Shown in pieces: positions 7,185 through 64,000 of a stretch of 64,000 bases of DNA. Positions within the stretch are counted from its first letter, which is position 1. Every line of letters starts with the position of its first letter. The DNA is from an uncultured delta proteobacterium. Its GTDB lineage: Bacteria; Desulfobacterota; Binatia; Binatales; Binataceae. The notes under the pieces are model-generated. The model ran no database searches. It worked only from the letters and a program-made list of their open reading frames with translations, and was not told the origin of the DNA. The stretch spans positions 1 through 64,000 of the forward strand of contig CAWCDG010000003.1 of NCBI GenBank assembly GCA_963794325.1. Direction: 5' to 3'. Made by a program: the position numbers and the translations under genes.

Positions 7185-7299
7185 GACTGAAGTTATTTAA
7201 GTGCACAACTCAGTGTTTGACAATAAGGGACGTTTTTGACATTTAGTGGCATCTGTCGTAACAATTAGGTGATGCCGAAGCCTGGTCCGTAGCGCCAGC

Positions 7300-46062: not shown

Positions 46063-49000
46063 CTAGCTCAAATCCGTGACAAGCTGCCTGGCATCTACGA
46101 TGTCGCGCGTATCGAGTCCCTCGGTGACGCTCTTAAGAAGAGGTTCGACAATTCCCTTCGCTTCGATAGCCTTTCCGCGCGCCAGAAGCAACCTTCCCAA
46201 GCTGGTAGCTGAGCGAATCGCATAAGGTTTCGCTCCGATGTCTATAGCCAGAGAAAGTGCAGTTCGGAAACTCTTCTCAGCCTCGTCCAGCGATGATTTG
46301 TCCAGCCGCAGGATTTGGACGATTCCCTCAGGACCGGCGTTTTTGAGAAGCAGTTCTCCTCTCAACCACCAAAGGTAGGAGAAATTCATAGGTTCCTGCA
46401 GCGCCAGATTGAGCCCTTGCTCTACTGTGGCGATCGCCTCTTCAGGTAATCCAGCGCATAAGAGCGCCTCCGCCAGAAAACCCAGGTAGGTTGCCATTCC
46501 GAGGCGATTGTCCGCCGCTTTAAAGCTCTCGATCGCTGCGCGCAAGCACGCCACGCCTTCTGCACCGCGTTCTTGTTTGGCGATCGCCCAGCCATACACA
46601 ATGCGGCTCGCGTCAAGGTAAAGCTGAATTGAATACTCGGTGGACCATTTGATCGATTTCTCGGAAAATTCCAGCGCTGGTCCTGGGTCCCGCATTAAGG
46701 CATGCAGGTACGCCGCATAGAAGCCGCAGCGTGCGAGCCCGAACGGCTTCTGAAGCCGGTCGCTAAGACTGAGCGCCTCCCGCATCCGACGGCGTGCGGT
46801 GTCGGCCATGCCGAGTTGCCACGCAGTCAGAGCCATGTATTCCAGCACCAGTATGCCGGGATCGTGCGGGTTCTTGCTGTGTTCTTCCTCCTGGTATTCC
46901 GAGTGCGCCTGACCAAGGAGATCCCAGGCTGACTCGAATTGCCCTCGATGGTACTGAACGACACCTGCAATATGATGACCCCAGATTTGTGTCTTCGACT
47001 TGCCGTGACGCTGGCTGGCCGCCAACGCCTGGTCGGCGATGGCCTTGGCGGCGTCAAGCTCTCCGCGCAGCAGGGGCGGCGTGACAAGTCCTGTGAGAGC
47101 GAGAACTACTTGCGTCGGATCGCCGAGCCTTTCGCCCAGATCGGACGCGCGCCGATATGCCGCGGCGGTCCTGGCATCGGCGTAACCCCGCGTCGCCATC
47201 AAGACCGCACCTACACTGAGCTGCAAGCCGAGTTCGAGTTGGTCTCGCTCGCGTGTATCCGCCATCCTTTTGAGTACCTGCAACGCGTCGCGATAGAGAT
47301 CTCCAGTTTCGGTCAGCGCACCTTGCAAGCGAGCCCGTCTGGCGGCCATCGACAAGAGTCGAACTGTTTTCGCACTGTCTGCGACCACACCAGCCTGATG
47401 CAGGTGATGCGCAAGATCGTTGACCCGCTCCTCCAGCGCGCCGGGGTAAACTCGCTCGATCGCTTCGGCGATCTGAAGATGCGATCGCTGACGCCGCGGC
47501 GCAGACATATCCGCGAGCACCGCTTTGCGGATAAGTTCGTGAGAGAACTGGAATCGCGCTTCAGGGAACTGCAGGGTCGAGGAAATCAGACCAGCCTTTT
47601 CTACTTCTTCGACCCGGTCGAGCAGTAGGTCCGGATCCACACCGGTTGCGGCTTCCAGCAGATCGAAGGTGAACGATCGTCCGATCACCGCCGCCGTACC
47701 GAGAATTTTCTGAGTCTCGCCGCCGAGGCGCGCCAGCCGCCGGCCGATTGCCAGCCTTAAACTATGCGGCACATCGACGTCCGCGAGTTTCAGATCGCGA
47801 AGGAACTCGCCGTTGGAATCCGTGAGTTGATCTCGCTCCGCCAGATGGCGATACAACTCTTCAACGAAAAACGGATTGCCCTCCGTGTTGGAGTGGATGA
47901 GGGTCACCAGGGCGGGCGGCGGCTCATGCCCGCTAAGAGCCTGAATCATCTCGGCGACCGCGTCCCTCGGAAGCCCGCGCAAACCGATGCGCTCGGAGAG
48001 GTGGAGGCGAGTCAGTTGGTCGAGTGTTTGCGCCAACGGTCCACCACCCTCAACTTCGTCGTCGCGATAGGTGCCGACGATTACAACCGGCATCTCGCCG
48101 AGTGACCGCGACACGTGGTTCAGCAGCGATAAGGTCCCTTCGTCAGCCCACTGCAGATCCTCCAGAAGCAGAAATACCGGACGCTCGCTTGCGTTACGGG
48201 CCAGGAATTCCCGGAATGCGTTGAACAAGAGCCGCCGCGATTCGCGCGACTGATCTGGTGGAAGCTCCAGGGGCTTGGGGATATCCGGGAACATCCGGCG
48301 GAGCTGGGGCACGAGCCGCGCCAACTCGGCGGCATCATGTCCGAGCGCCGCACGAAACGAGACCGGGCTGGCCGCCTGCGCCAGAGTCTCCAGAATTTCG
48401 ACGAATGGACAGAACGGGACCGAATCCTCTCTGTCGTAACAGCCACCGGCAAGCGTCAAGAAACCTCGCTGCGCAGCTTCTGCGCCGAACTCTTTCGCGA
48501 TGCGAGTCTTGCCCACACCGGGCTGGCCGCCGATCATCAACGCGCGCCCCTGTCCGCGTCGAATACCCTCAAGAGAGCGGCGCATCGCCGCGCGCTCCTC
48601 TTCTCTGCCTACGAACCTGGTTTGATCCTCAAGCTCGCGCAGGAAATCCGTTTCGCTGCGGAGGAGTAGAGGCGCCGTCATCTCATCCGCTTCAACCGTG
48701 TTTTTGATGCCTTCGAGTGAGAATTGCCAGCTGATTGGAGCGTGCGGGTCTGTGATGTAACAGCAGAACAGTCCGGTCCGGACGCTCCGATCGAGCATGG
48801 CTCCGAGCTCGGTTTGCTGTTCGGAGATTTTCTGCAGCGCAGTCTTGATAGCACGAGTGACGTTGAGCCGCGCGCGCTCCGCGGCCGAGCCCGCGCGCCG
48901 GTCGCGCCCACCCATTCCGACCGCGCGTGCCATCTCGCGGTTGAGAAAATCGATTTCAGACTCGATCCGTTCGGCGCGCGCGAGGTCGCCGCGCTCGTGC

Positions 49001-49398
49001 TGGTCTTCGAGTTCCTCGTTAAGTTCGCGCAGCTTGCGTTTGTATGCCTGCTTCGCTTGCGCGTCGAGCATCGGGCCGGAATCGCCGAGTCCGCCTACGC
49101 TGTGGGCACCCTCAATTCGTAGTGAAGTCCCATGATCGATCTGACTGTGGCTCATCGATTCTCGATCGTTCATCAGATCGAGTGAATGGAATTCCTCGCC
49201 CGGGTGCTGCAGCAAGCGCTGGATATAACTGAGACCCTTAACGTCCCTGAGCGAGAAGGTCGTGTCCCTGTAGCCGAGGGTCCAAAAGTCACCGCACGAA
49301 ACAAAAGTGCCAGTCGCCGCCGCTGCAATTCCGGGAGATTCCACTCCCCGTACACGGTCCTCTGACTCTCTCTCAATCGTCGCCAAAGAAACCCCCAA
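46063..49398 (-). CDS. STAND-type AAA ATPase/TPR regulator with an N-terminal putative DNA-binding domain
   Basis: FVGRE, GQPGVGKT, LEDLQWAD, GNPFF, FSHELIR, helical repeats. Confidence 0.85.
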   Translation of the reverse strand: MGVSLATIERESEDRVRGVESPGIAAAATGTFVSCGDFWTLGYRDTTFSLRDVKGLSYIQRLLQHPGEEFHSLDLMNDRESMSHSQIDHGTSLRIEGAHSVGGLGDSGPMLDAQAKQAYKRKLRELNEELEDQHERGDLARAERIESEIDFLNREMARAVGMGGRDRRAGSAAERARLNVTRAIKTALQKISEQQTELGAMLDRSVRTGLFCCYITDPHAPISWQFSLEGIKNTVEADEMTAPLLLRSETDFLRELEDQTRFVGREEERAAMRRSLEGIRRGQGRALMIGGQPGVGKTRIAKEFGAEAAQRGFLTLAGGCYDREDSVPFCPFVEILETLAQAASPVSFRAALGHDAAELARLVPQLRRMFPDIPKPLELPPDQSRESRRLLFNAFREFLARNASERPVFLLLEDLQWADEGTLSLLNHVSRSLGEMPVVIVGTYRDDEVEGGGPLAQTLDQLTRLHLSERIGLRGLPRDAVAEMIQALSGHEPPPALVTLIHSNTEGNPFFVEELYRHLAERDQLTDSNGEFLRDLKLADVDVPHSLRLAIGRRLARLGGETQKILGTAAVIGRSFTFDLLEAATGVDPDLLLDRVEEVEKAGLISSTLQFPEARFQFSHELIRKAVLADMSAPRRQRSHLQIAEAIERVYPGALEERVNDLAHHLHQAGVVADSAKTVRLLSMAARRARLQGALTETGDLYRDALQVLKRMADTRERDQLELGLQLSVGAVLMATRGYADARTAAAYRRASDLGERLGDPTQVVLALTGLVTPPLLRGELDAAKAIADQALAASQRHGKSKTQIWGHHIAGVVQYHRGQFESAWDLLGQAHSEYQEEEHSKNPHDPGILVLEYMALTAWQLGMADTARRRMREALSLSDRLQKPFGLARCGFYAAYLHALMRDPGPALEFSEKSIKWSTEYSIQLYLDASRIVYGWAIAKQERGAEGVACLRAAIESFKAADNRLGMATYLGFLAEALLCAGLPEEAIATVEQGLNLALQEPMNFSYLWWLRGELLLKNAGPEGIVQILRLDKSSLDEAEKSFRTALSLAIDIGAKPYAIRSATSLGRLLLARGKAIEAKGIVEPLLKSVTEGLDTRDIVDARQLVTDLS

Positions 49399-49774: not shown

Positions 49775-50284
49775 CTAGCGCTCGGCAACAGTCTCTGACA
49801 GGAACCAGGTGCGGCGCTCGGTCTCGTCGATCCAGTTCTCGATAAGGCTGGCGGTGGCGACGTCGTCGAACTGCTCGCAAATTTTATGGGTGGATCGTAG
49901 CTCCCGGGTCAGCTGCTGATTGTCATCACGCAGCTCGACGAGCATGTCGTGCGGCTGGACGAATTCGGCATTGTTGTCTTTCAGACGTTGATGCTCTGCG
50001 ATGTCCTTGATCGAGTGCAGAGTCGTTGCGCCGATTTTGCGCGCGCGCTCCGCGATATCGTCGGTCATTGCGAAGATTTGTTCCGCCTGTTCATCGAGCA
50101 GCAGATGGTAGTCGCGGAAATGCTTCCCGCTAATGTGCCAGTGGAAGTTCTTGGTCTTCACGTAAAGCGTGAACACGTCGGCAAGTAATTTGCGCAGCGC
50201 TCCCGATATTTCAACCACCGCATCACCGGTCAGGTCGCTTGGTGTTTCCCAAAGAGTCTTGGTTCGAGCTGCAGAGCTTTTCAT
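49775..50284 (-). CDS. dps: DNA starvation/stationary-phase protection protein Dps
   Basis: KTKNFHWH, HLLLDEQ, DDIAER, W..ETERRTWFL. Confidence 0.93.
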   Translation of the reverse strand: MKSSAARTKTLWETPSDLTGDAVVEISGALRKLLADVFTLYVKTKNFHWHISGKHFRDYHLLLDEQAEQIFAMTDDIAERARKIGATTLHSIKDIAEHQRLKDNNAEFVQPHDMLVELRDDNQQLTRELRSTHKICEQFDDVATASLIENWIDETERRTWFLSETVAER

Positions 50285-50321
50285 TTTCTTTTCCTCGATT
50301 GATTGTTTCTCTTGAGACTGC

Positions 50322-51788
50322 TCATCGTGCCATCCGGTGCTTTGCCACCGCCTTTGCAACCTGATTGCCATACTGAGGATCAGCCTTGCGGAAATGCCCG
50401 ATCGAGCGTTCGATAATGTCCTCGCGGCTGACTTGCCCGAGGCTCGCCGCAATGTTCGCGACCAGTCTCCGCTGCTCCTCTTCGTTCATCAGCCGATAAA
50501 GATCTCCGGCCTGAACGAAGTCGTTGTCATCGCGATGATGCACCGGTGCATGATTTCCGGTGAGCCCCTCGACTTCGATTGGCGCCCACACCGGCTCGCC
50601 GGTCTGTTTGGGACCTCCGAAGCTGTTGGGCTCGTAGTTTTTCTCGCGCCCATGATTGCCATCCGCGCGCATAGAGCCGTCACGGCTGTAATTGTTCACG
50701 TGAGCTGCATGCGGCTCGTTGATCGGCAGATGCATGTGATTTGCGCCGAGGCGGTAGCGATGCGTATCGCCGTAGCTGAACAGGCGGCCTTGCAACATCT
50801 TGTCGGGGGAGGGACCGATGCCCGGCACGAAGTGCGCGGGATTGAAGGCCGCCTGTTCAACTTCGGCGAAATAGTTTTCCGGATTGCGATTTAACACGAT
50901 TCTGCCGACCGTAGTCAGCGGGTAGTCGCGATGCGACCAGACCTTGGTCACATCAAACGGATTGAAGCGGTACTTTGCCGCGTCGGCCGCCGGCATGACC
51001 TGCATCTTTAGCGTCCACGACGGATACTCGGCGCGATCGATCGCGCGCAGCAGATCGCGCTGATGATAGTCGGCGTCGTGGCCCGCGATGCGCGCCGCAT
51101 CGGCGGCGACGAGATTCCTGATCCCCTGGTCGGTCTTGAAGTGATACTTCACCCAGAACACTTCGCCTCGCACATTGACCCACTGAAAAGTATGCGAGCC
51201 GAAGCCGTCCATCGCGCGAAAGCTGGCGGGAATGCCCCTGTCGCTGAACAGAATCGTGAACTGATGCGTCGCTTCGGGACTAAGCGAGAAGAAATCCCAC
51301 ACGTTGTCAGGTTCCTGGATGTTGGTGTATGCGTCGCGCTTCTGCGAATGGATGAAGTCGGGAAACTTCAGCGGATCGCGGATAAAGAACACCGGCGTAT
51401 TGTTGCCGACCAGGTCGTAGTTGCCATCCTCGGTGTAAAACTTGATCGCGAATCCACGCGGGTCGCGCACCGTGTCGGCCGAGCCCTTCTCGCCGGCGAC
51501 GGTTGAGAAGCGCATGAAAACGTCGGTTCGCTTTCCGACCGGCGTTAGAAATTTGGCTTTCGTCCACTGCGTCACGTTGGCCAGTACTTCGAAGTATCCG
51601 TATGCGCCCGAACCTTTGGCGTGCACCACGCGCTCGGGAATTCGCTCGCGGTCGAAATGCGCGAGTTTCTCGATCAGGTGATGGTCCTCGACAAGGACCG
51701 GCCCGGCCGAACCCGCAGTCCGCGAGTTCTGATTATCGGCAACGGGCGCCCCATTATCGGTTGTCAGTGTCTTTCTGGAATCCATCAC
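50322..51788 (-). CDS. katA: Monofunctional small-subunit heme catalase
   Basis: [33 protein letters not shown]. Confidence 0.95.
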
Positions 51789-51819
51789 TCTCTCCGCTCA
51801 ATTTGCGGCAATCCATAAC

Positions 51820-51838
51820 GCGTGAAATCGCGCCGCAC
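51820..51838. promoter_or_regulatory. Conserved motif GCGTGA-N8-CGCAC, copy 1 (upstream of catalase)
   Basis: GCGTGA AATCGCGC CGCAC. Confidence 0.6.
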
Positions 51839-51906
51839 AAAGTCCGGGAGGTGGCGGGAGGCCCGAACCTTCTCCGCCGGCTCCCTGGGGTTCGTCCTTT
51901 TGCCAG

Positions 51907-52212
51907 TTACCAGACCCGGACCGGTTGAAGCGCGTCGTCAACCTGGTTCTGCGAGACCTGCTGCCCAGTCTTCATGCGCTCGACCAACTGATCGATTTGG
52001 TAGCTCTTCTGCGCAAAGGCGGGGTTGTCCTTGTTGCCTGTGCGGGCTTCGCGCTGCGCAGCTTCCGAGGCTTGCTGCAAGTCGGCAATCGTCTGCACGT
52101 CGGGCTGAGCGGTCGGGTAACTTCTCGAAATTCCGACGGGTCCCGCGAGAACCGGCGTCGAGAGCGCCAACGCCATCGTTCCTGCGGCTAAAATCGCTGA
52201 TAGTTTTTTCAT
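51907..52212 (-). CDS. Small secreted hypothetical protein
   Basis: AGGAG RBS; signal peptide MKKLSAILAAGTMALALSTPVLA. Confidence 0.75.
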   Translation of the reverse strand: MKKLSAILAAGTMALALSTPVLAGPVGISRSYPTAQPDVQTIADLQQASEAAQREARTGNKDNPAFAQKSYQIDQLVERMKTGQQVSQNQVDDALQPVRVW

Positions 52213-52294
52213 CTGACTCAATCTCCTTTTCAATTTTGCAACCGGATGCGGAAGCTTTCGCTTCCCACCTCATATTCGGCCTTCTGACATAAAG

Positions 52295-52313
52295 GCGTGA
52301 AAAATGGGCGCAC
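52295..52313. promoter_or_regulatory. Conserved motif GCGTGA-N8-CGCAC, copy 2
   Basis: GCGTGA AAAATGGG CGCAC. Confidence 0.65.
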
Positions 52314-52402
52314 AATGGAATTAGGCTCTATCCGGCGCAGGTGGTACGATTTTACAAACGCGCGGTTCGCCAGAAATTGGTCGAATCGTCCAGAGAACTC
52401 AC

Positions 52403-55400
52403 ATGGCACCTGATACGCGGAGCGCTCGATCGGCCGCGGCTGGAACGGGCGGGTCGGTGCAAAAAATCCATCCGGCGCAAAAGGGCATCTTTCGCAAAGA
52501 GGGTGAGTACTGGACTGTCGGTTACGGCGGGAAGTCCTTCCGTCTAAAAGACACTAAAGGTCTCGGGTACCTCGCCCATCTGCTGCGTCATCCCGCGGTC
52601 GAATTCCACGTGCTCGATCTGGTCGGCGGAATTGCGGGCCGGCATGACGAGGACGACAGCATCGGATCGGCGCACGGCTTGCCGCGCGGAGACGAGGATC
52701 TCGAAAAGGCCGGCATCCATATCGGCAGCCTCGGCGATGCGGGCGAGATGCTCGACGATCAAGCCAAGGTCGAATACAGACGCCGGCTTTCCGAATTGCG
52801 CGAAGAGCTCGAAGAAGCCAAGGAAGCGGGAAACGTCGAACGCGCCGAGCAGGCGGAAGAAGAGATCGAGGCGCTGACCAGGGAACTGTCGCGCGCAGTG
52901 GGACTGGGAGGACGTAATCGCAGGGCGGCGTCAGCTTCGGAGCGAGCCCGACAGAGCGTCACCAAGACGATCAAGGCGGTCCTGGAAAGAATCGAGCAGA
53001 GCGACGCGGCGCTCGGCGAGCTCCTATCGCGATCTATAACGACGGGCACCTACTGCTCCTACCAGCCCAATCCCGATTTTCCGATCGCATGGGAATTCGG
53101 TGCGGAAACTACGCCGCCTGACCCGGAGCCGGTTTCGAGTGTCGAGCCCGCGCCTTCGCGTATCGATCGTCCGCGGCCCTCGTCGCCGGTGTTACAGGTT
53201 TCGCCGTTCTCGCTCGCCGAACGGACTGCTTTCGTGGGGCGGGAAGCCGAGCGCAATCTGATTCGCACGGTGATCGATCGCGCGCTCGACGGCCACGGCT
53301 CAGTTGTGATGCTCGGAGGCGGACCCGGCGTGGGCAAGAGCCGCCTGGCGATGGAGATGGCCGAGTATGCGTCGCGAGTTGGCTTTCAATACCTCGTTGG
53401 GCATTGCTACGAACGAGACGAGCCTTTTCCATATCTACCTATCGTCGAGATTATCGAAAGCGGCCTGTCGCTGACGCCGAGCCTGGAGGAATACCGTCGG
53501 CGGATGGGCGACAACGCGCCCGAGCTTGCCCAGATCGCTCCCAGCCTTCGGCGAGTTTTTCCGGATATCCCGCCTCCGTTGGATCTGCCGCCCGCGCAGA
53601 AACGCCGCTATCTCTTTCAGAGCATCTCGGAGGGCCTGGCGCGCGCGTCTCGAACCCGTTCGTACGTGTACGTCATCGAGGATCTTCACTGGGCTGACGA
53701 ATCGACCTTGGCGCTTCTGATTCATCTGGCCAATCGCGTCGCTCAGCTCCCGATTGTGATCATCGGTACTTATCGCGACGGATATGCGGATCGGAACTCG
53801 ATGTTGGTCAGAACCCTCGAAGAGCTGATTCGGATGGGCAATCGTCCGCTGAAGCTGAGCGGTCTATCAAGCGAAGCCGTCGGACAGATGTTGCAGTCTC
53901 TCAGCCGGGGACAAGCTCCCCAAAGTCTGGTGAGCCTCATCTTTGAAGAGAGCCAGGGCTATCCTTTCTTCGTCGAGGAGGTGTACCGGCATCTGGTCGA
54001 AGAGGGGAAAGTTTTTGACGAGGCTGGCCAGTTCCGCACAGCGATCAAGATCGACGAGATCGACGTTCCGGAAAACGTGCGCTTGATCATCGGCCGCCGC
54101 CTCGAGCGGTTCGACGAGAACGAAAAGCGGGTGCTGGCCGCAGCAGCGATGATCGGGCGCGGCTTCAGTTTCCGACTCCTGACTCAGGTCAGCCAGATCG
54201 ACGTTGACGAACTCTTCACCGTCGTCGATAAGGCGCAGCAGATGGGAATCATCGTCGCCAGCTCCGAGGGACCCGAGAAACCGTTCACCTTCGCTCATCA
54301 ACTGGTGCGTCAGACGTTGCTGGCCGGTCTGTCGGTTCCGCGCAAACAACAAATGCACGCAGCGGTGGCCGATGCGATCGAGCTGGTCTTTCCCCGTTTC
54401 ATCAATGAGCGCGCCGGCGAGATCACTGACCATCTGCTCAAGGCAGGATCGTTCGCGGACGGCCGGAGATTGGTGCGTTACCTGATGCTGGCGGGCAAGA
54501 ACGCACTCGAAGCTGCTGCATTCGAGGAAGCGCGGCGCAGTTTTCGGTCGGCGCTGTCGTATGAAGGTGCGCTTGAGCAGCGGGAAAAAGCGGAGTTGTT
54601 GGCGAGCCTCGCGATTGCCGATCTAAGTCTTGAGCATTGGGACGCTGCGCTCACCAGTCTTCGCGAGGCACTCGAAATTTACACCAATCTCGGCGACCGG
54701 CAGATGATCGGCAAGAGCTTTGCCGAGTTGGCCGATGCATTTGTTTGGGTTGGCCGCTTCCGGGACGCGAGCGAAACCGCGCGTCGCGGACTCGACTACC
54801 TCGGCCAGGACGTCAGCGCCAACCGGCTGAACCTTCTCGCTGCGCTTGGCCACGCTAGCGCGGCGTCCGCGGGCCACGAAAAGGCTTGTGAGGCGCTGCG
54901 GGAAGCCCTGGATATTGCATCCAACCTTTCCGATCCAAAGCTTGAGGCCAGGGTGCTCGGCGCTCGGTGTATAGTAAATCTGCATTTCTTCCGATTGAAG
55001 GAAGCCGCCGCCGATGGACTTCTTAGCGAAAAGCTGGCTGGAGCGGAAGCGCCTCCGTGGCAGCGCGCCACGCAACTGCGAGTTCTACATCAGGCACTGT
55101 TAACTCTGGGGCGTTTGGACGAGGCTCTCAGAATAGCGGCAGTACTTGAGCCGCTGGCGACCAAGATAGGGCAAGCTTATTCCATCGCGCTTTGCCTGAG
55201 CACCCGAACCTGGCTCGAATTTGTCAGAGAGCCCAACCTGACCAAGCTCGATGCCGGCTTCCAGGAAGTGGCGAAGTCCGATGCGAAGGTGAGGTTTCCC
55301 TTTTGGGAAGTACTCTCCGAGGTACAACTAAGTGCGTTGGACTTTGTTCGCGGCGATTGGCCAAGCGCTCTAGCGCATGCTCGCAACGCTTCACGTATCG

Positions 55401-55963
55401 ATCCGCAAATGAGTTCAATCCAGGGCTTCGGTGAGGGAACTCTTTTTCGGCAGATGGCATATGCCGGCGATCGCGACGGTGCATTGGCATTGCTTGAAAA
55501 CCATCGCACCTCGCTGCCGGTCAGCGGCCGGGAGAATACCAGAGGATCGTGGTGGATGCTGGCGCTGGTGGTCGAGGGCCTTTTCATGCTCGGAGAGCAT
55601 GCGCAAGCCGGAGAGCTTTACCCGCTGGTTCGCGATTTGATCGACACTGGAGCAGTCGTAGTTTGGCCGATCCCACGCTACACCCAGACTGTCGCCGGCC
55701 TCGCCGCCGCTGGGGCACGTCAGTGGGAAGCCGCCGAAAAACATTTTCAGGTCGCGATGCGGCAGGCCGATTTCTTTCCGGATCGCCCCGAACAAGCTGA
55801 GATACACCGCTTCCACGCGATGATGCTCAGGGACCGCGCAGGCCGAGGCGATCGCGAAAAAGCGCAAACACTACTCAATGAGGCGCTCGAGACCTACACG
55901 CATATCGGGATGCCGCGCCACATCGAGATGATCCAGGCTCTCGCTAAACACCTGTCCGGGTGA
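52403..55963 (+). CDS. STAND-type AAA ATPase/TPR regulator, paralog of 46063-49398
   Basis: FVGRE, GGPGVGKS, IEDLHWAD, GYPFF, FAHQLVR; same N-terminal domain. Confidence 0.88.
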   Translation: MAPDTRSARSAAAGTGGSVQKIHPAQKGIFRKEGEYWTVGYGGKSFRLKDTKGLGYLAHLLRHPAVEFHVLDLVGGIAGRHDEDDSIGSAHGLPRGDEDLEKAGIHIGSLGDAGEMLDDQAKVEYRRRLSELREELEEAKEAGNVERAEQAEEEIEALTRELSRAVGLGGRNRRAASASERARQSVTKTIKAVLERIEQSDAALGELLSRSITTGTYCSYQPNPDFPIAWEFGAETTPPDPEPVSSVEPAPSRIDRPRPSSPVLQVSPFSLAERTAFVGREAERNLIRTVIDRALDGHGSVVMLGGGPGVGKSRLAMEMAEYASRVGFQYLVGHCYERDEPFPYLPIVEIIESGLSLTPSLEEYRRRMGDNAPELAQIAPSLRRVFPDIPPPLDLPPAQKRRYLFQSISEGLARASRTRSYVYVIEDLHWADESTLALLIHLANRVAQLPIVIIGTYRDGYADRNSMLVRTLEELIRMGNRPLKLSGLSSEAVGQMLQSLSRGQAPQSLVSLIFEESQGYPFFVEEVYRHLVEEGKVFDEAGQFRTAIKIDEIDVPENVRLIIGRRLERFDENEKRVLAAAAMIGRGFSFRLLTQVSQIDVDELFTVVDKAQQMGIIVASSEGPEKPFTFAHQLVRQTLLAGLSVPRKQQMHAAVADAIELVFPRFINERAGEITDHLLKAGSFADGRRLVRYLMLAGKNALEAAAFEEARRSFRSALSYEGALEQREKAELLASLAIADLSLEHWDAALTSLREALEIYTNLGDRQMIGKSFAELADAFVWVGRFRDASETARRGLDYLGQDVSANRLNLLAALGHASAASAGHEKACEALREALDIASNLSDPKLEARVLGARCIVNLHFFRLKEAAADGLLSEKLAGAEAPPWQRATQLRVLHQALLTLGRLDEALRIAAVLEPLATKIGQAYSIALCLSTRTWLEFVREPNLTKLDAGFQEVAKSDAKVRFPFWEVLSEVQLSALDFVRGDWPSALAHARNASRIDPQMSSIQGFGEGTLFRQMAYAGDRDGALALLENHRTSLPVSGRENTRGSWWMLALVVEGLFMLGEHAQAGELYPLVRDLIDTGAVVVWPIPRYTQTVAGLAAAGARQWEAAEKHFQVAMRQADFFPDRPEQAEIHRFHAMMLRDRAGRGDREKAQTLLNEALETYTHIGMPRHIEMIQALAKHLSG

Positions 55964-56990
55964 TAGCGAGCCTCACGGAATTCTGATCCGTCGCATTCGA
56001 ACTGCCGCGAGATGGCGGCGCCATGAATTCCGGGCCCACGGGCTTCTTGATGGTGTCGCGGACGATCCGATCGATCGCGCGAAGCGCGCTGGTATCGAGC
56101 GTCCATCCCATCACGTCGCCGACCGGGTCGAGCTGGTTCGGATGCCGGGCGCCCCACAGCGCGGCCGACACGCCCGGCTGATCGAGTACCCATCTCAGTG
56201 CGAGGTGGATGACTCGCTTGCCGTAATTTTTCTGTGCGAATTGATCCAGCAGCCTGACCGCCTCGAGGTACTGCTCGAATCGCGGCGGCTGAAATTTCGG
56301 ATCGGTTCGCCGCAGGTCGTCGCCTTCGAATTTGGTGTCACGATTCATCCGGCCGCTAAGCAGTCCGCGGCAGATTGCGCCGTAAGCGAAAACCGCGATT
56401 CCTTCCCACGCGCAGTGGGGCAGGACATCCTTTTCGATCTGGCGCTCGAAGAGATTGTAGGGCGGCTGCGCGGTATGAATCGGAGCGACCAGCCCGAATT
56501 CATTCATCTGCGCCGACGAAAAATTGCTCACCCCGATCGCGCGGATTTTGCCTTGGTGGAGCAGGGCGGCCATCGCGTCGGCAGTCTCGCTGATCGGAGT
56601 CATCGGATCAGGCCAGTGCACCTGGTAGATGTCGATCACGTCGGTCCTGAGCCGCTTCAGCGAGGCCTCGACCTCCGCAAAGATTCGGCTACGGGTCGCA
56701 TTGCGAAACGGCTGTTCGTTGGCCCAGTCGAGTCCGACCTTGGTGGCTATCGTTACGCGATTTCTCATACCGCCCAACTCGATCGCTTTTCCGACAATCT
56801 CTTCTGACCTGCCAAAACCGTACACCGGCGCGGTGTCGATCAGCGTGATTCCGCGATCGACCGCCGAATGGATCGTGCGGATCGATTCCGCTTCATCCGT
56901 GCCGCCCCACATCCATCCGCCCATTGCCCACGTGCCAAGACCGATGCGCGAAAACTGGAGATCCGCGTTTGGGATTCTGATGGTTTCCAT
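55944..56990 (-). CDS. Aldo/keto reductase (YhdN/general-stress-like)
   Basis: GLGTWAMGG, DTAPVYG, ATK, YQVHWPD, GVSNF. Confidence 0.93.
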   Translation of the reverse strand: METIRIPNADLQFSRIGLGTWAMGGWMWGGTDEAESIRTIHSAVDRGITLIDTAPVYGFGRSEEIVGKAIELGGMRNRVTIATKVGLDWANEQPFRNATRSRIFAEVEASLKRLRTDVIDIYQVHWPDPMTPISETADAMAALLHQGKIRAIGVSNFSSAQMNEFGLVAPIHTAQPPYNLFERQIEKDVLPHCAWEGIAVFAYGAICRGLLSGRMNRDTKFEGDDLRRTDPKFQPPRFEQYLEAVRLLDQFAQKNYGKRVIHLALRWVLDQPGVSAALWGARHPNQLDPVGDVMGWTLDTSALRAIDRIVRDTIKKPVGPEFMAPPSRGSSNATDQNSVRLAITRTGV

Positions 56991-57001
56991 TTTTTCTCCT
57001 T

Positions 57002-58192
57002 TCACGATTTACTTGGACTGTTCTCGACTGGTTGAACTGGTTCGCCGTCGCGTGCGGCCTCCCCGACGTTCACCGCGATCTGATCGCCCGCGCGAAGGTC
57101 GCCATTGACTTCGACCGTGTAACCGTCGTCATGGCCGAGCGTCACCTCGACCAGCTTGAGATGGTTCTCGCGCACCACCGGCAAATAGATTTTGTCATTG
57201 CGGAATACGAGCGCGTCGTCGGGCGCGGTCAGACCTGAGACCGTCACGTGTGCCGTCATCTTCATGTTCGCGTACATCCCGGGGGCCAGCGACCGATCCT
57301 TATTTGGCAGATCGACCTCGACCTGCATCGTGCGGGTGGTTTGATCGAGCGCCTCGGGATGACGCGTGACCGTGCCGGTAAAGGTGCGGCCCGGATAGTC
57401 GATGACGGTTACGCTGGCGGGATCGCCGTCTTCGATAAACGACGAAATGCTTTGCGGCACAAAAGCGTAAACCCGCAGCGGCGTCTGGCTTGACAGCGAT
57501 ACGATCGGCGTCGAGGTGCTGCTGGTGGAGTAGAAAACTGCGTTCGGCGTCGAAGAGACGGGCGCGGTGGCCGCCGGAATCAACGTGCCAGGATCGACGA
57601 AGCGCGCAGTTACGATGCCGTCGAAGGGCGCCCGCACTACCTCGTACCCTTGCATCGCTAGCTCTTGTTCGTAGGCCGCCTTGGCCTGGAGCATCGCGGA
57701 GTGAGTCATGTCGGCGGTCTGCTGCGGAACGACCTGCTGACGAACGAGTTCCTGATTGCGAATGTCGGTGACGTCTTGAATCCAATAGAACGAGCGCGCA
57801 TCCGCCACCAGCTTGTCGGTCTCAGGCGACTCGATGATTGCGATTACTTGGCCAGCCTTGACGTGGTCGCCCTTGTCCACGTTGATGGTCTTCATGTATC
57901 CGGCGACCTTGGCGTAGACCGGAGTCTCGATGTAGCCGTGGATGCTGGCCGGAAGCTCGATCGTCCGCGACGAATCGCCGCCCGACAATTGCGTCACCAG
58001 CACGTGCGGTCCGAGCGCGGCGGTCTGTGAAAGCTCCGTCGTTTGCCGTTGGATGAGTTGCTGCCGCGCCAGCACCAATCCCCCGGAGACGGTGAACGCG
58101 ATAATCACTGCCGCAAACAACGCGATCATCAGTAACCGGCCCGGCCTGCGTTGATTGTGGTTCTCTTCTGCCTGCGTATCGGTGGAACTCAT
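57002..58192 (-). CDS. RND efflux periplasmic adaptor (MFP)
   Basis: N-terminal TM; VYAKVAGY, RAPFDGIVT, TRTMQVEVDLPN; start at MSSTDT. Confidence 0.9.
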   Translation of the reverse strand: MSSTDTQAEENHNQRRPGRLLMIALFAAVIIAFTVSGGLVLARQQLIQRQTTELSQTAALGPHVLVTQLSGGDSSRTIELPASIHGYIETPVYAKVAGYMKTINVDKGDHVKAGQVIAIIESPETDKLVADARSFYWIQDVTDIRNQELVRQQVVPQQTADMTHSAMLQAKAAYEQELAMQGYEVVRAPFDGIVTARFVDPGTLIPAATAPVSSTPNAVFYSTSSTSTPIVSLSSQTPLRVYAFVPQSISSFIEDGDPASVTVIDYPGRTFTGTVTRHPEALDQTTRTMQVEVDLPNKDRSLAPGMYANMKMTAHVTVSGLTAPDDALVFRNDKIYLPVVRENHLKLVEVTLGHDDGYTVEVNGDLRAGDQIAVNVGEAARDGEPVQPVENSPSKS

Positions 58193-58194
58193 TG

Positions 58195-61100
58195 TTAGGC
58201 TCCTGGCTCTGAGATCGCTTGTACGCGTTGGTCGCGCTGAAGTTTGGTGATTAGTGTGCGGCTGAAGATCGAGTAGACCGCTGGCACCACGAACAGGGTC
58301 ATCAAGGTTGCCGCGAAAAGTCCGCCGATGACGGCGCGTCCCAGCGGCGCGTTCTGCTCCGACCCCTCGCCAATCGCGAGCGCCATCGGCAGCATCCCTA
58401 GAATCATCGCGAGCGCCGTCATGATGATCGGCCGGAAACGGACGTGGCCCGCTTCGATCGCAGCTTCGACCGGCCCCATCCCTTCCTCGCGCATCTCGTT
58501 GGCGAAAGTGATAAGCAGGTTGCCGTTGGCGACGCCGACGCCCACCGCCATGATCGCGCCCATCAGCGACTCGACGTTGATCGTTGTGCCGGTCAGCACC
58601 AGCATCCAGAGCACGCCGGCCAGCGCGCCCGGCACCGCCATAATGATGATGAACGGCTCGAGCCACGACTGAAAATTCGCGACCATCAGCAGATAGACCA
58701 GGACGATCGCCAGGATCAGCCCGAGGCCCATCGTCTTGAACGATTGGTTCATCGCCTGGCTCTGCCCGCGAATGACGACGTGGGTGCCGGCCGGCAGTTG
58801 GCCGAGACTGTCGATCGCCTTTTGCACCGCGCTGGTCGTGCTGCCGAGGTCTCGTCCACTGACGCCGCAATCCACGTCGATAACTCGCTGCACCGTGTAG
58901 TGCGCGACCACGGCGGGGTCGACGTTGTGACTGATCGACGCAACGTTGCCGAGAAATTGCACCGCCTGCGTGCTGGTTCCATTGGTGAGCGGCGTATTGG
59001 CAATTTGATCGACCGACGCAGTCGTCTCGATCGGCGCCTGGGTCACGACGTTGTAATTGACGCCGTTAACCGGATCGAGCCAGTAGTTCGGTGAGATAAG
59101 AGTGTTGCCGCTCAGCGACGACAGCAGCCCCGACGCGACTTGCTGCTCGGTCACTCCGAGCTCGAGCGCCTTGGCGCGATCGACTTTCACCTTGAAGGAC
59201 GGGTAGTCCAGCGGCTCCGCAATCCGCATATCGGTGACGCCCGGAATCAGCGCCATCTTCGCGGCGAGGCGCGCGGCGATCTGGTAGTCGGAGTGGAGAT
59301 CGTTGCCGTTGATCTGAGCGTCGATCGCTGCCGGAAGTCCGAAGTTCAGCACCTCGTTCACGATGTCGGCGGCCATGAAATAGCCCGTGATATTCGGGAA
59401 CTTCGTGCTCATCATTTGGCGGATGCGATCCATGTAAACGGCGCTCGGATGATGATTGGGCTTGAGCTGGATCAGGATTTCGCCGTCCTGCGGACCTATG
59501 TTGTCGCTCGGGAAAAACGCGATCGCATACGGCTGCGGCAGATCGATGTCGTCGCTTATCTGCTGCAGCTCATCGGGCGGAATGATCTTCCGGATCTCGC
59601 GCTCGATATCGTCGACAATCACCGCGGTCCGCTCGATGCGCGTGCCGCTCGGCGCGCGCACGTGAAACTTCATGAGCCCGGCGTCCACCGTCGGAAAGAA
59701 ATCCTCGCCGGTGACGTACAGCAGCGGGAGCGTGCCGAGAATCATCAGCGCTGCACAAGTGAGTGCGAGGCCGCGATGCGCAATGAAGGCGCTCACGCCG
59801 GACACATAATGCTTGCGGATGCGCTCGAAGCCGGCTTCGAATCCGCCCAGGAACCGGCGCCACAGACTGTTGCCCCCGACCTCCTGGTGCTTCTCCGGCA
59901 GCAGGTATGAGGCCATCGTCGGCACCAGCGTGCGCGACAGCAGGTACGAGGTCAGCATCGCGAACACGACCGCAAGCGCCAGCGGAGTGAACAGAAAGCG
60001 AGCGACGCCGGTCAGTAGGACGACCGGGAGAAACACGATGCAGATGGAAAGCGTGCCGATGAAGGTCGGCGTCGCAATCTGATGCGCGCCGTCCAGAATC
60101 GCAACCAGCAGCGGCTTGTTCATCGCGTGATTGCGATGGATATTCTCGACCTCGACCGTCGCGTCATCCACCAGCATCCCGACCGCAAGCGCAATTCCGC
60201 CCAGCGTCATCGTGTTGATCGTCTGACCCGCCAGGTGCAGGCAAAAGATCGAGGTAAGAATCGAGAGCGGGATCGACGCGATAACGATCAGCATGCTGGC
60301 CGGCGATCCGATGAATATCAGCACCATCAACGCCACCAGCGCCGCCGCGATCACCGCCTCGCGCACCACCTCCCATAGCGACGCGCGAACGAAAGCGGAC
60401 TGATCGAAGGTGAGCGCCACCTTGAGGCCCTTGGGCGCGACCGCGAGAATTTCCGGGATGCGCGCCCGCACCGCATCGACGACTGACAGCGTCGAGGCGG
60501 CCGCGTGCTTGATTACCAGCAGGAAGGTTGCAGGTCGCCCGTCGATACGCACGACGTTGGTCTGCGGCTGATGCGTGTCGCTGACCGGCGCGATATCGCC
60601 GAGAAAAATCGGGATGCCGTTGGTCACTCTGACCGGCAACCGGTTGAACTCGGACACCTTGGTCGGATTCATGTTGAGATCGACGTCGTACTCGTAGTTG
60701 CCCATGCGAGCGGTGCCCGACGGGATGACGACGTTGGTCGTCGAGAGCGCATTGCCGATATCCACCGGCGACAGGCCGTTGGCGTACATCTGTTTGGGAT
60801 CTAGGTTGACGACGACCGCGCGCTGTACGCCGCCGATCGGCGCGGGCGACGAAAATCCGGGTATCGTGAACAGTTGCAGTCGAATGAAATTCAAGCCGTA
60901 GTCAAAGAGCTGTTGCTGCGAGAGCGTCTCGCTATAGATGTTGAGCTGAGCGACCGGAACATTCGCCGCGTTGTAGGAAATGATATTTGGAGCGGTGGTG
61001 CCGAGTGGCGCCTGGCGCAGAATCGTTTCCGAAACCGCATTGATTTGCGCTATGGCGGCGCCGATATCCGTGCCCGGCTGGAAATAAACTTTGAGCACGC

Positions 61101-61371
61101 CGATCCCGAGAATCGACTCCGACTCGATATGCTCGATTCCGTCGACCGTCGTCGAATAAGCGCGCTCGCTGATGATCACCAGCCGGCGCTCCATATCAAC
61201 CGCGTTGAGCCCGGGGTAGCTCCAAACCACCATCACGACTGGCAAATTGATAGCTGGGAAAATATCGACGTTCATCATGGTGAACGACAAGGTACCCATC
61301 ACCAGCATCAGCAGAGCCATAACCGCCACTGAGAGCGGACGCCGCAGCGCGAGTCGTACTATCCACATCAT
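58195..61371 (-). CDS. RND efflux permease (AcrB family)
   Basis: 1058 aa; GMLVDDATVEVEN, RFRPIIMT, PLGRAVIGG. Confidence 0.95.
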   Translation of the reverse strand: MMWIVRLALRRPLSVAVMALLMLVMGTLSFTMMNVDIFPAINLPVVMVVWSYPGLNAVDMERRLVIISERAYSTTVDGIEHIESESILGIGVLKVYFQPGTDIGAAIAQINAVSETILRQAPLGTTAPNIISYNAANVPVAQLNIYSETLSQQQLFDYGLNFIRLQLFTIPGFSSPAPIGGVQRAVVVNLDPKQMYANGLSPVDIGNALSTTNVVIPSGTARMGNYEYDVDLNMNPTKVSEFNRLPVRVTNGIPIFLGDIAPVSDTHQPQTNVVRIDGRPATFLLVIKHAAASTLSVVDAVRARIPEILAVAPKGLKVALTFDQSAFVRASLWEVVREAVIAAALVALMVLIFIGSPASMLIVIASIPLSILTSIFCLHLAGQTINTMTLGGIALAVGMLVDDATVEVENIHRNHAMNKPLLVAILDGAHQIATPTFIGTLSICIVFLPVVLLTGVARFLFTPLALAVVFAMLTSYLLSRTLVPTMASYLLPEKHQEVGGNSLWRRFLGGFEAGFERIRKHYVSGVSAFIAHRGLALTCAALMILGTLPLLYVTGEDFFPTVDAGLMKFHVRAPSGTRIERTAVIVDDIEREIRKIIPPDELQQISDDIDLPQPYAIAFFPSDNIGPQDGEILIQLKPNHHPSAVYMDRIRQMMSTKFPNITGYFMAADIVNEVLNFGLPAAIDAQINGNDLHSDYQIAARLAAKMALIPGVTDMRIAEPLDYPSFKVKVDRAKALELGVTEQQVASGLLSSLSGNTLISPNYWLDPVNGVNYNVVTQAPIETTASVDQIANTPLTNGTSTQAVQFLGNVASISHNVDPAVVAHYTVQRVIDVDCGVSGRDLGSTTSAVQKAIDSLGQLPAGTHVVIRGQSQAMNQSFKTMGLGLILAIVLVYLLMVANFQSWLEPFIIIMAVPGALAGVLWMLVLTGTTINVESLMGAIMAVGVGVANGNLLITFANEMREEGMGPVEAAIEAGHVRFRPIIMTALAMILGMLPMALAIGEGSEQNAPLGRAVIGGLFAATLMTLFVVPAVYSIFSRTLITKLQRDQRVQAISEPGA

Positions 61372-61403
61372 GGCTGGATCACCTCCCTGTACGTCTCAGT
61401 TGC

Positions 61404-62342
61404 TCATCGCGCTGCTTGAATCTTTAATCTTGAAGTCAGGCTGGCCGGCTGAGGCTCATGGACGCGCGCGAGGCGTTCCATTTCGCTGATCACGCTCGAG
61501 AAATCCTCGTCGCCATTTACAGCGGTACGCGCCGCATTGATCTGAAGCGCGGCGGCAGTCACCGGCATCGGTGCGCCGACTTCGCCCGCCTTCTCGAGAA
61601 TCAATCTGAAGTCCTTGTTCATCAGGCGCAGCGGGAACTGAGGCGAATAGTCATCGTGCTCCGCACGCAGCAGCTTGTTTTGATGTGCCGGCGAAATGAC
61701 GGCCGTCTTGGCGAGGACTTCGAGCAGGCGTTTGCGGTCGAGGCCCGCCTTCTCTCCGAACGCGACGGCCTCCGCGATTGCCTGCATGTTCACCCCGAGC
61801 AAAGCATTGACCACCAGCTTCATCGCGGTCCCGGAACCGCTCGGCCCCATAAGAAAATACTGCTTCGCTATCGCGGCAAAGATCGGCTGGCATGCGTCGA
61901 ACACCTTCACATCGCCGCCACCGAGCAGCGTCAACGTCCCACTCTCTGCGGCGGGGGTGCTACCGGAAATCGCGACATCCAGGACTTCGATCCCGCGCTC
62001 GACGCCCATCCGATGGAGCACTCGCGACGTGTCCGGCGAGATGGTGCTCATCTCGATCACGACGGTGCCGGGATTCGCGCAGGCGATAACTCCTTCTGGA
62101 CCCTGATAGACGCTCAGCACCGCTTGGTCGTTGGGCAGGCACGAGATTATTACCTCTGACTTCCTCGCGAGCTGGCGAACGTTCGGGGCGGCGGTCGCTC
62201 CGTGGGCAACCAGCGCGCCAGCTTTACGACTCGTATGGTCGTACGCGACCAGTTTGAAGCCGCTGTTGAGAAGCCTGCGCGCCATTAGCTGTCCCATCGC
62301 GCCAAGCCCTACGAATCCAATCGTTGAATTTTGCGAAATCAT
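61404..62342 (-). CDS. 3-hydroxyisobutyrate-dehydrogenase-family NAD(P) oxidoreductase
   Basis: GFVGLGAMG, EMSTISP, DVAISGS, KLVVN, KD. Confidence 0.9.
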   Translation of the reverse strand: MISQNSTIGFVGLGAMGQLMARRLLNSGFKLVAYDHTSRKAGALVAHGATAAPNVRQLARKSEVIISCLPNDQAVLSVYQGPEGVIACANPGTVVIEMSTISPDTSRVLHRMGVERGIEVLDVAISGSTPAAESGTLTLLGGGDVKVFDACQPIFAAIAKQYFLMGPSGSGTAMKLVVNALLGVNMQAIAEAVAFGEKAGLDRKRLLEVLAKTAVISPAHQNKLLRAEHDDYSPQFPLRLMNKDFRLILEKAGEVGAPMPVTAAALQINAARTAVNGDEDFSSVISEMERLARVHEPQPASLTSRLKIQAAR

Positions 62343-62391
62343 GGTCTGGTCCCTCCAACGAAAAGCGAAAACGAAAATTCGCGAAAAATCG

Positions 62392-62541
62392 CTAAATGAT
62401 TGAGAAAGCCACCAACATCGAAACGACGGTCACGACCATCAGCGCCAGCCCGATCATCGCGAGAGCGAGTGCTGCGGTGTCCTCATTGTACGAGCCATAC
62501 GGAATCGCACGCGGGTGAACGATTTTCGTCTCGTGGGGCAT
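62392..62541 (-). CDS. Small single-TM protein
   Basis: 49 aa with a hydrophobic C-terminal helix; motif copy upstream. Confidence 0.5.
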   Translation of the reverse strand: MPHETKIVHPRAIPYGSYNEDTAALALAMIGLALMVVTVVSMLVAFSII

Positions 62542-62611
62542 AACCCTGGTAAAATGTCGGTAGTTTATGGGGAATTTCGTGTACATTGTTCTGAACCTCT
62601 CAACCAAAAAG

Positions 62612-62630
62612 GCGTGAAAAATCGGCGCAC
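62612..62630. promoter_or_regulatory. Conserved motif GCGTGA-N8-CGCAC, copy 3
   Basis: AAAGGCGTGAAAAATCGGCGCACGAT, 24/26 identical to 52291-52316. Confidence 0.65.
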
Positions 62631-62650
62631 GATCAGCGTGCTACGCGATT

Positions 62651-63010
62651 TCACCGAATTGGGCCGTGAAATGCGTATGCCGGGTGGAATCCGCCGGCCG
62701 GGATGCCCATCGAGTCGGGCGGTATCAAGGTCGGGCTGTCCGGGGACTCCGGCGGATGCCCAAACGGCTCGATTAGCCCGACGGGCGGCGGCGGCACATA
62801 CATCGATCCTGGTTCACTGTCTTCAGGTTGCGAGGGCGCCGGCGCCAAAACCGGGCCGTCCGCCCACGGCTCCTCGAATGAAGGATCGTAGGCGTCCCCA
62901 TCCGAGGAAGCTTGCGCCGCGGAACCGCCGTAGGTCTGCGCAAAGACCGGTTGAATAAACAGGAGCACCGAGGCTCCGACAATTGTCGCCGCTAATTTTG
63001 TGATTTTCAT
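62651..63010 (-). CDS. Secreted Pro/acidic-rich hypothetical protein
   Basis: Signal peptide MKITKLAATIVGASVLLFIQPVFA; Pro-rich tail. Confidence 0.65.
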   Translation of the reverse strand: MKITKLAATIVGASVLLFIQPVFAQTYGGSAAQASSDGDAYDPSFEEPWADGPVLAPAPSQPEDSEPGSMYVPPPPVGLIEPFGHPPESPDSPTLIPPDSMGIPAGGFHPAYAFHGPIR

Positions 63011-63089
63011 TTTCTTATACCTCAAGTCGGTTCGCTGGCCGCGTGGTTCGTTCGGAATTGCGGGCTAGCGTGAACCTTCATTAATCGAG

Positions 63090-63108
63090 GCGTGAGAAAC
63101 GCCCGCAC
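63090..63108. promoter_or_regulatory. Conserved motif GCGTGA-N8-CGCAC, copy 4
   Basis: GCGTGA GAAACGCC CGCAC. Confidence 0.6.
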
Positions 63109-63201
63109 GACGGGGATCACTGGCGTGGGGGTTGGCTCGAATTGACCTGGAGAGTCATTTCGCATCAGACTGCATCGTTCGCCGACGAGGACTGACGCGG
63201 A

Positions 63202-63855: not shown

Positions 63856-64000
63856 TCGCTAGATTAGAGTCGTTCGAACTGCTCCTGGAGAAAACGTAAA
63901 TGTCACTTCACAGAAAACATGACTCCGGCCGCAAAGCGTCGGACGTCATCTATGCTTCAAGCGATCTTTCCCTGTCGGTTCCCAAGCATCGAATCCCCCG

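Follow-up and report, generated by a model that had tools for sequence, protein, structure and literature searches.

A directional 23-bp box before stress genes of a Binataceae bacterium, with STAND proteins as its putative readers

The classical STAND activators, MalT and GutR, are oligomerising proteins driven by signal and ATP, with TPR or SUPR repeats as their sensor. A differently built activator is AfsR, for which one report describes a SARP winged-helix dimer on a 22-bp box made of two 11-bp direct repeats centred at -29.5; this box overlaps a weak promoter at its poor -35 element, both sigma region 4 and the core enzyme are touched by the dimer in what is called 'sigma adaptation', and the NOD and TPR parts modulate its activity (PMC10936776). 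Here, we describe a directional 23-bp DNA box, TTGTGCGGnnAtTTTTCACGCCT on the gene strand, in a 64,000-nt stretch of an uncultured bacterium of the Binataceae (contig CAWCDG010000003.1 of GCA_963794325.1, positions 1 to 64,000, hereafter the window and, in the 4.45-Mb, 10-contig assembly, C3:1-64000). With a probability of roughly 0.6, the box is the putative target of paralogous STAND transcription factors built of a winged helix, an AAA_16 ATPase and TPR repeats, which would activate in an AfsR-like manner, and for which we infer binding, activation, start site and signal alike. Close homologues of the best candidate, encoded at 52403-55963, bear the NCBI names Candidatus Binatus and Binataceae, and the genus is probably Candidatus Binatus. 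MalT carries a LuxR-type helix-turn-helix at its C-terminus, whereas the Binatus STAND protein has a predicted winged helix at its N-terminus.

The first-pass annotation of this DNA had reported four copies of GCGTGA-N8-CGCAC in one orientation, and all four are exact: they start at 51820, 52295, 62612 and 63090, lie on the plus strand and compare with a mean of 0.16 in 100 dinucleotide-preserving shuffles, none of which reached four. Permitting one mismatch adds a single, unrelated match in the window. Every copy stands upstream of a minus-strand gene, as claimed, at distances that extend somewhat below the 35-85 bp given there: the gap from the end of CACGC to the likely ATG is 34 nt for catalase, 82 for a 101-amino-acid (aa) secreted protein, 25 for a 64-aa membrane protein and 78 for a Pro-rich protein, a range of 25-82 nt. 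The copies at 52295 and 62612 do agree at 24 of 26 positions, and the GA(G)AGG said to follow three copies by about 10 nt is present in three of the four as GAAGG or GAGAGG, some 9-10 nt past CACGCC. The true motif is wider, GCGTGA-N8-CGCAC being the core of a 23-bp block that, counted on the minus strand relative to GTGCGG, spans T-2 to T+20. The window holds the following copies, scored with a position weight matrix (PWM):

Box 1, 52293..52315, minus strand: PWM 42.0, the best score in the genome; faces the genes for the 101-aa secreted protein, catalase and Dps.
Purine-rich AGAAGG, 52280..52285, minus strand: +28..+33 of box 1.
Box 2, 51818..51840, minus strand: PWM 31.1; between the 101-aa gene and catalase, with CACGCG in place of CACGCC.
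Box 3, 62610..62632, minus strand: PWM 38.6; before the 64-aa membrane protein gene, with a partial second GTG-N11-CACGC unit 4 nt upstream.
Box 4, 63088..63110, minus strand: PWM 28.6; before the Pro-rich secreted protein gene, with marC diverging on the far side.

On the strand of the downstream gene, a logo of 52-69 sites reads T T G T G C G g n c A t T T T T C A C G C C T from -2 to +20, and it divides into two 11-bp halves, TTGTGCGGnnA and tTTTTCACGCC(T), with the loose likeness TTKTKCR. Positions +21..+27 are almost uninformative; then comes a weaker element, tGA(A/G)G, 8 nt after the box, starting at +28 to +30 in 47 of 69 boxes, and a faint GCACGC appears at -11 to -6. The GTG ... CAC cores recall CRP/FNR sites (TGTGA-N6-TCACA), but the annotation was right to set the spacing apart from theirs: it is GTG-N11-CAC instead of N8, 3 bp longer, and the logo is asymmetric, with ATTTTT and GCCT on one side only and a strict orientation. 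The left half alone, GTG[CG]-N2-CGATTT, was considered as a free-standing element and rejected, since its 35 matches fall within the 33-66 of N0-N6 spacing variants; an earlier excess had come from a poor control, the reversed genome.

Across the genome, the exact pattern has 22 matches, about 11 of them in the box family, while a 28-nt weight matrix separates 12 sites, at 28.6-42.0, from a next best of 21.6 and a remainder at or below 19. The genome-wide scan that the first-pass annotation had proposed returns a small set of 12-13 boxes, all aimed at stress-type genes. At 13 of 13 genome sites a gene starts 2-250 nt downstream on one strand. Just upstream of several boxes a long co-directional gene ends, and the orientation given here is taken as the functional one because the opposite reading would drive antisense RNA; the open-reading-frame (ORF)-based test of these upstream regions was noisy, and only long co-directional ORFs with high third-position GC were counted. 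The first genes behind the boxes encode the 101-aa secreted protein followed by catalase and Dps, catalase itself, the 64-aa protein followed by an RND operon, the Pro-rich protein, a cytochrome c followed by a 2Fe-2S/molybdopterin oxidoreductase, a Gly/Tyr-rich secreted protein, a class II fumarase (fumC), a DUF1329 protein, an HTH_17 protein and small unknown proteins. Of the operator or promoter element of a general-stress regulon that the annotation inferred, what stands is a small, conserved, oriented signal before stress or detoxification genes; the set itself looks more like one for oxidative or electrophile stress.

The box is shared by relatives. Among 47 genomes of the genus, a denominator that takes in two unpublished and box-negative ones (G040 and G041), the strict pattern TGTGC-N6-WYB-TCACGCC has 123 matches against 4 for a reversed control; at least one family-like match occurs in 24 of the 47 and at least two matches in 22, while 12 genomes from other families of the class have at most one family-like match. 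The annotation had named absence from orthologues as evidence against a regulon, and the fetched loci show the opposite: from species to species the flanks diverge, yet the box still precedes the same gene families. It stands before the 64-aa gene at eight loci, the 101-aa gene at five, DUF1329 and catalase at three each and Dps at two, the Dps gene lying directly behind a box in genomes G004 and G013. The 64-aa gene, present in 19 of the 47 genomes, every one of them box-bearing, is among the most tightly box-linked genes. In seven relatives, the island keeps the order 64-aa gene, dehydrogenase, RND pump, membrane-fusion protein, aldo-keto reductase, STAND gene (on the opposite strand), 101-aa gene, catalase and Dps.

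The 64-aa gene also informs the purine-rich element downstream of the box. Its ATG lies 22-24 nt past CACGCC in most genomes and is shifted to +46 and +52 at two loci, where tGAAGG keeps its place; the element thus belongs to the box and is not simply a ribosome-binding site. At +28..+33 it is a candidate -10 or start-site element, and not always a ribosome-binding site.

So short a distance between box and start codon raises the question of whether the motif functions at the RNA level within the 5′ leader, through a structure or as the target of a protein or small RNA, to hide the GAGG ribosome-binding site. Such a role would suit the minimum-energy fold, which pairs GCCUUU with GAAGGC in three of the four window copies, and the short distances in front of the 64-aa gene, where the box is only about 10 nt from GAGG and 22-25 nt from the ATG. 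It fares badly when the structure is put to statistics: folding z-scores of +0.55 to -1.25 are no better than those of shuffles, 419 of 500 re-pairings of the arms between sites are at least as good as the true ones, no column pair except, weakly, +22/+29 exceeds the pairing expected from its make-up, and Rfam yields no match at E <=1 over 49000-64000. We therefore regard an RNA-level function as very improbable, and the CCTTT/GAAGG hairpin was rejected on its near-shuffle folding and the lack of covariation between its arms.

The STAND protein facing box 1 is the one conserved island member with regulatory architecture, and its gene begins 85-89 nt from that box. The features concerned are:

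STAND regulator candidate, 1186 aa, 52403..55963, plus strand: winged-helix-like N-domain (about residues 20-235), AAA_16 ATPase and TPR repeats.
Probable extended -10 (TGnTAnnnT) of the STAND gene's own promoter, 52341..52353, plus strand: GGTGGTACGATTT, kept in the box-to-STAND spacer of relatives.
Second STAND protein, 1111 aa, 46063..49398, minus strand: N-domain of the same type, 48% identical; another subfamily, with no box upstream.

In the first of these proteins, AAA_16 is matched at E 3e-23 over residues 277-454, and TPR_12 and TPR_2 lie in the C-terminal part together with a weak TPR_MalT match. We call subfamily A those STAND proteins whose N-domain is at least 59% identical to this query. 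Subfamily A occurs in 22 of the 47 genus genomes, the same 22 that have two or more strict-pattern matches (in one of them, G054, just one of the two matches is family-like); more distant paralogues (42-55%), including the protein at 46063-49398, are found in box-free genomes too. A divergent box-like site lies within about 600 bp upstream of 46 of 61 subfamily-A genes, and a co-directional box alone was found at none of the 61. The pairings were counted as follows:

Strict pattern, 85-325 nt upstream: 61 genes examined, 24 with a divergent site.
First batch of upstream regions, matrix scan: 20 examined, 12 with a divergent site.
Second batch, matrix scan: 16 examined, 9 with a divergent site.
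Third copy of this genome, fumC box: 1 examined, 1 with a divergent site.

Re-measurement of 48 loci gave 43 with a site, 33 of which lie at 81-98 nt from the STAND start codon, and matrix matches are expected by chance at 0.0035 per 700 nt. In this genome, a box lies opposite each of the three subfamily-A STAND genes (C3:52403, C2:35236 and C4:820652); the boxes in question precede the 101-aa/catalase operon, the cytochrome c/Mo-oxidoreductase operon and fumC. The earlier proposal that the adjacent STAND proteins are the binders is thereby largely supported, but narrowed: the protein at 52403-55963, with its predicted winged helix and the divergent pairing of its subfamily, is the likely candidate, while the one at 46063-49398 belongs to the other subfamily and is boxless.

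The box varies with the STAND clade: its left half differs between clades (TTGTGCGG, TTGAGCGG, cGGTGCCG), while the right half, TTTTCACGCC, is constant. Box-variant labels placed on a quick maximum-likelihood tree require 17 changes against 24.2 when shuffled, and none of 200 shuffles was as low. This clustering is merely suggestive, because the site is physically linked to the gene and descent alone predicts it; a few clade-specific substitutions in the putative recognition helix are likewise inseparable from descent.

The N-domain itself belongs to a large family, with 12,514 representative clusters at E <=0.001. It sits at the N-terminus as here, at the C-terminus of proteins of about 1100-1250 residues, or alone at about 225 residues, and this varied placement in other lineages marks the roughly 210-residue domain as a mobile module. 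Its conserved start is FRxEGxYWTIxYxGxxxRLKDxKGLxYxAxLLxHPGxEFHxLDL, and its conserved end GGRDRRAxSxAERARLxVTRAIKxA...TGTFCSYxPDPxxPxxW. A sequence search of the PDB with the N-domain profile gave no relative, and a search of the ESM Atlas gave unnamed clusters only. An AlphaFold2 model from a 35-sequence alignment (mean predicted local distance difference test score 83) runs from three strands and two helices through a disordered linker and a long two-helix hairpin to another pair of helices and then a beta-hairpin. In an exhaustive structure comparison, DNA-binding domains of the OmpR/PhoB family stand at or near the top, aligned over 85-97 of roughly 100 residues and covering both N- and C-terminal parts:

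BaeR: Z 8.7, root-mean-square deviation 2.9 Å, 96 residues.
GlnR: Z 8.1.
CssR: Z 7.8.
VicR: Z 7.6.
CadC, CpxR, AdeR, ToxR and KdpE: Z 7.1-7.4.

The remaining high rows match the inserted hairpin only, and the two best Foldseek rows are AfsR chains, albeit weak ones (E 0.12-0.21). As the OmpR/PhoB matches are consistent and cover the whole domain, the model is read as probably an OmpR/PhoB-type winged helix in which the loop between helix 2 and the recognition helix carries a large insertion, a hairpin of about 60 residues plus the disordered linker. With the OmpR/PhoB family (BaeR, GlnR, CpxR, KdpE and the membrane forms ToxR and CadC) the modelled domain shares the N-terminal sheet, the helices, the recognition helix and the wing hairpin; it differs in having no receiver, in the large insertion at the position of the transactivation loop and in its fusion to a STAND ATPase.

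The nearest worked-out system, and the one that the Binatus box and its candidate reader would most resemble, is that of the AfsR-type STAND activators. Both have the order winged helix (predicted here), STAND ATPase and TPR, with a STAND/NOD ATPase followed by TPR sensor repeats, the ATPase here matching AAA_16. A 22-23-bp box that adjoins or covers the -35 position of promoters without a good -10 or -35 would likewise be common to both, given the start site that we presume for Binatus. The differences are that BTAD is undetected in the Binatus protein, which has a two-helix hairpin insertion instead of the BTAD bundle, that the N-domain has no sequence-level SARP match, that the host belongs to the Binatota rather than the Actinomycetota and that the targets are stress genes rather than antibiotic clusters. 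The Binatus protein should not be filed as a SARP, because BTAD is the defining feature of that group. The NCBIfam AfsR model matches only the TPR part of a STAND protein other than that at 52403-55963.

A third STAND protein, encoded just past the window (C3:65485-68802; L034 1485-4802), carries, instead of the winged-helix-like N-domain, a double zinc ribbon together with an adenylate/guanylate cyclase domain, so that one island contains a single ATPase-TPR chassis with different effector heads.

On these grounds, the following mechanism may be proposed. STAND factors encoded divergently beside some boxes would perceive a signal through their TPR/ATPase part and dock on the box, which would cover the -35 and spacer region of weak promoters; docking would switch on catalase-Dps, fumC, the RND efflux/reductase operon, the Mo-oxidoreductase and several small exported proteins. 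Activation is preferred to repression because of the AfsR analogy and because box promoters lack recognisable core elements, these being the only two grounds. The spacer between box and STAND gene contains a conserved TGGTAnGAT, and this extended -10 indicates that ordinary TAnnnT promoters exist in the organism; the box-side promoters have no TAnnnT -10. After the box come 7-8 unconserved bases and then a weak hexamer, often with A at its second and T at its sixth position. Taken as the -10, this hexamer would place the transcription start near +40 and leave the 64-aa mRNA with little or no leader. An element upstream of some boxes, AAATCGTACCACC, was tried as a second operator and rejected: it has one exact copy in the genome and three in the fetched loci, and corresponds to the extended -10 region of the STAND gene itself, read on the reverse strand.

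The strict orientation, the weak second element tGA(A/G)G at a fixed distance (+28..+33) and the stress-type gene set would also be expected of a promoter read by an alternative sigma factor, of the extracytoplasmic function (ECF) or group-3 type, that runs the stress regulon with the STAND genes as mere members or neighbours. An obvious candidate exists: an ECF sigma gene and its zf-HC2 anti-sigma gene diverge from the box at C4:764484, the top-scoring one outside the window, and an orthologue of this sigma factor is found in 29 of the 47 genomes, all 24 box-bearing ones and five others. Yet the sigma gene has a strongly conserved ECF promoter of its own, GGGAATAA-N15-GGTCT, at 21 of 21 aligned loci, the box points away from it and a box lies near it at only 4 of the 21, which makes it an unlikely reader; attractive as its adjacency and co-occurrence are, it was dropped in view of that distinct promoter. 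Nor has the box the form of an ECF promoter, with a GGAAC-type -35 and a CGT/GTC-type -10 set 16-17 bp apart and, as a rule, a further copy before the gene of the sigma factor; it is one contiguous stretch of 23 bp, and the expected -10 is without information. The genome encodes 11 other sigma-70-family members, by way of one of which an alternative-sigma promoter is possible. On balance, we judge a sigma-factor reading improbable.

Around that locus, a few observations may be recorded. The ECF sigma (176 aa) and zf-HC2 anti-sigma (257 aa) genes, at C4:763834-765030 of G000 (L033 6062-8030), have the promoter TCGGGAATAA-N15-CGGTCTG, which has exactly two copies in the genome, one ahead of the sigma gene and one just past the HTH_17 gene, pointing back through the latter; with the sigma promoter duplicated at its flank, the HTH_17-plus-box module looks like an insertion. 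A conserved leader, ATCGCC(G)CCAAAAATCGCCCACA, is found 35-45 nt past the box before HTH_17-type genes (L033 7530-7560; L016, L026 and L027). The 77-aa HTH_17 protein behind the C4:764484 box was itself considered as the regulator and set aside as non-discriminating, because its family has 4-13 copies in each of the 47 genomes; the box-linked copy occurs in about eight. Elsewhere in the window, 28673-30063 on the minus strand encodes a 314-aa ECF-type sigma factor that has a SnoaL-like extension at its C-terminus; a DUF6223 membrane protein precedes it, and no link between this sigma factor and the box was found.

A site of about 20 bp that is asymmetric and orientation-dependent could alternatively be bound by another transcription factor, for example a monomeric AraC/XylS-type activator of the SoxS/MarA kind, and its adjacency to STAND genes would then reflect no more than a shared island. 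The gene set (fumC, an RND pump and reductases) recalls what we take to be the SoxS/MarA regulon, and MarR, TetR, LysR and two-component genes are present in some genomes' islands. None of the latter is conserved across the islands, as the STAND gene is; there are just three full AraC-type genes in the genome, none near a box; and the divergent pairing at 81-98 nt is left unexplained. In a comparison by eye with the marbox, which we assume to be a 20-bp asymmetric site with GCAC followed one turn on by an A-rich element, the order of the blocks is reversed. Binding by such a factor is thus also doubtful, at about the same level as the sigma-factor promoter. An AraC-type HTH_18 fragment with an in-frame TGA at 7240-7410 (plus strand) of the window is probably a gene remnant.

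Several observations weigh against the assignment of the box to the STAND factors. Neither Pfam nor NCBIfam matches anything in residues 1-277 of the protein, Trans_reg_C and BTAD included (for BTAD, Pfam gives nothing at E <=1), and the fold scores are middling, since by the tool's own note Z values of 7-8.7 can be reached without a true match and the Foldseek E values exceed 0.1. Fifteen of the 61 subfamily-A genes have no box nearby, mostly forms of about 700 residues whose match begins at query residue 17-25, and two fragmented genomes, G033 and G035 (390 and 410 contigs), have one box each and no subfamily-A STAND gene that could be found. Shared descent and physical linkage could explain both the co-occurrence and the clade-site correlation: many accessory genes are common to the box-bearing genomes, the 64-aa gene and the ECF sigma factor among them, and the STAND gene could be a member of the regulon instead of its regulator. 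The geometry is imperfect as well. Large SARPs bind 11-bp direct repeats over the -35, with the 3′ repeat about 8 bp from the -10, whereas the halves of the Binatus box are barely repeated, sharing 4-5 of their first 7 positions, unlike true SARP or OmpR direct repeats; and if the conserved GAGG is a true ribosome-binding site, transcription would start at +29 or earlier and the box centre would lie near -21, which is not the AfsR geometry.

The genes behind the window's boxes are arranged as follows:

101-aa secreted protein gene, 51907..52212, minus strand: without a family match.
Catalase gene, 50322..51785, minus strand.
Dps/ferritin-like gene, 49775..50300, minus strand: start not fixed.
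64-aa membrane protein gene, 62392..62586, minus strand: heads the dehydrogenase-RND-membrane-fusion protein-aldo-keto reductase row.
Four-gene row behind box 3, 55944..62342, minus strand: syntenic in relatives, with the four members below.
NAD-binding dehydrogenase, 61404-62342, minus strand.
RND pump, 58195-61371, minus strand.
Membrane-fusion protein, 57002-58198, minus strand.
Aldo-keto reductase, 55944-57005, minus strand.
Pro-rich secreted protein gene, 62651..63011, minus strand: behind box 4.

The 64-aa protein matches no family and has the consensus M.xK....YRHFT.V.PHETK.V.PRAIPYGSY.E followed by one membrane helix. Some genes behind boxes are broken. The class II fumarase behind its box (C4:~819100-820530, minus strand) is read as two overlapping ORFs of 333 and 173 aa, through either a frameshift or an assembly error; the catalase of the G013 island (L022 4791-5355) is in pieces of 131 and 68 aa, and at locus L029 a 96-aa catalase start runs into unrelated sequence, which may reflect decay of catalase in some lineages or assembly errors. 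Contigs from two soil metatranscriptome runs match catalase, the 101-aa gene and the genes for the aldo-keto reductase, membrane-fusion protein, RND pump and dehydrogenase at >=90% likeness, mostly at 90-95% and therefore from relatives; such contigs carry neither starts nor strands, DNA is possible in such libraries, and the low cover over the STAND gene and 62487-63900 is unusable as evidence.

In the accessible portion of the literature on Binatota, Binatia or Binatus and on AfsR or SARP proteins, we found no description of the box, the regulon or the N-domain, and what it contains on the phylum Binatota consists of genome surveys only. To our knowledge, nothing experimental has been reported on gene regulation in this abundant, uncultured soil phylum. 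The logic of a STAND ATPase joined to a winged-helix effector and a promoter-overlapping box is already known from AfsR; for the Binatota, the result supplies a specific cis-element together with a delimited stress regulon and a candidate regulator identified by name, all of which are addressable with synthetic DNA and recombinant protein even though the organism is uncultured. It also suggests a function for a large STAND/NLR-like family whose end domain is left unannotated by databases, and bears on a current question, namely in what proportions bacterial NLR-like ATPases serve as transcription factors or as immune sensors. Taken together, and more tentatively, at somewhat less than even odds, the roughly 210-residue N-domain may be an unrecognised and very widespread DNA-binding effector, a winged helix split by a helical hairpin. 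If so, a whole class of bacterial NLR-like ATPases, at present catalogued as 'TPR repeat protein' or 'AAA ATPase', would consist of transcription factors gated by a signal, each with its divergent 22-bp box, and the oxidative-stress island of Candidatus Binatus would be run by AfsR-like replacement of -35 recognition, with mRNAs that are leaderless or nearly so.

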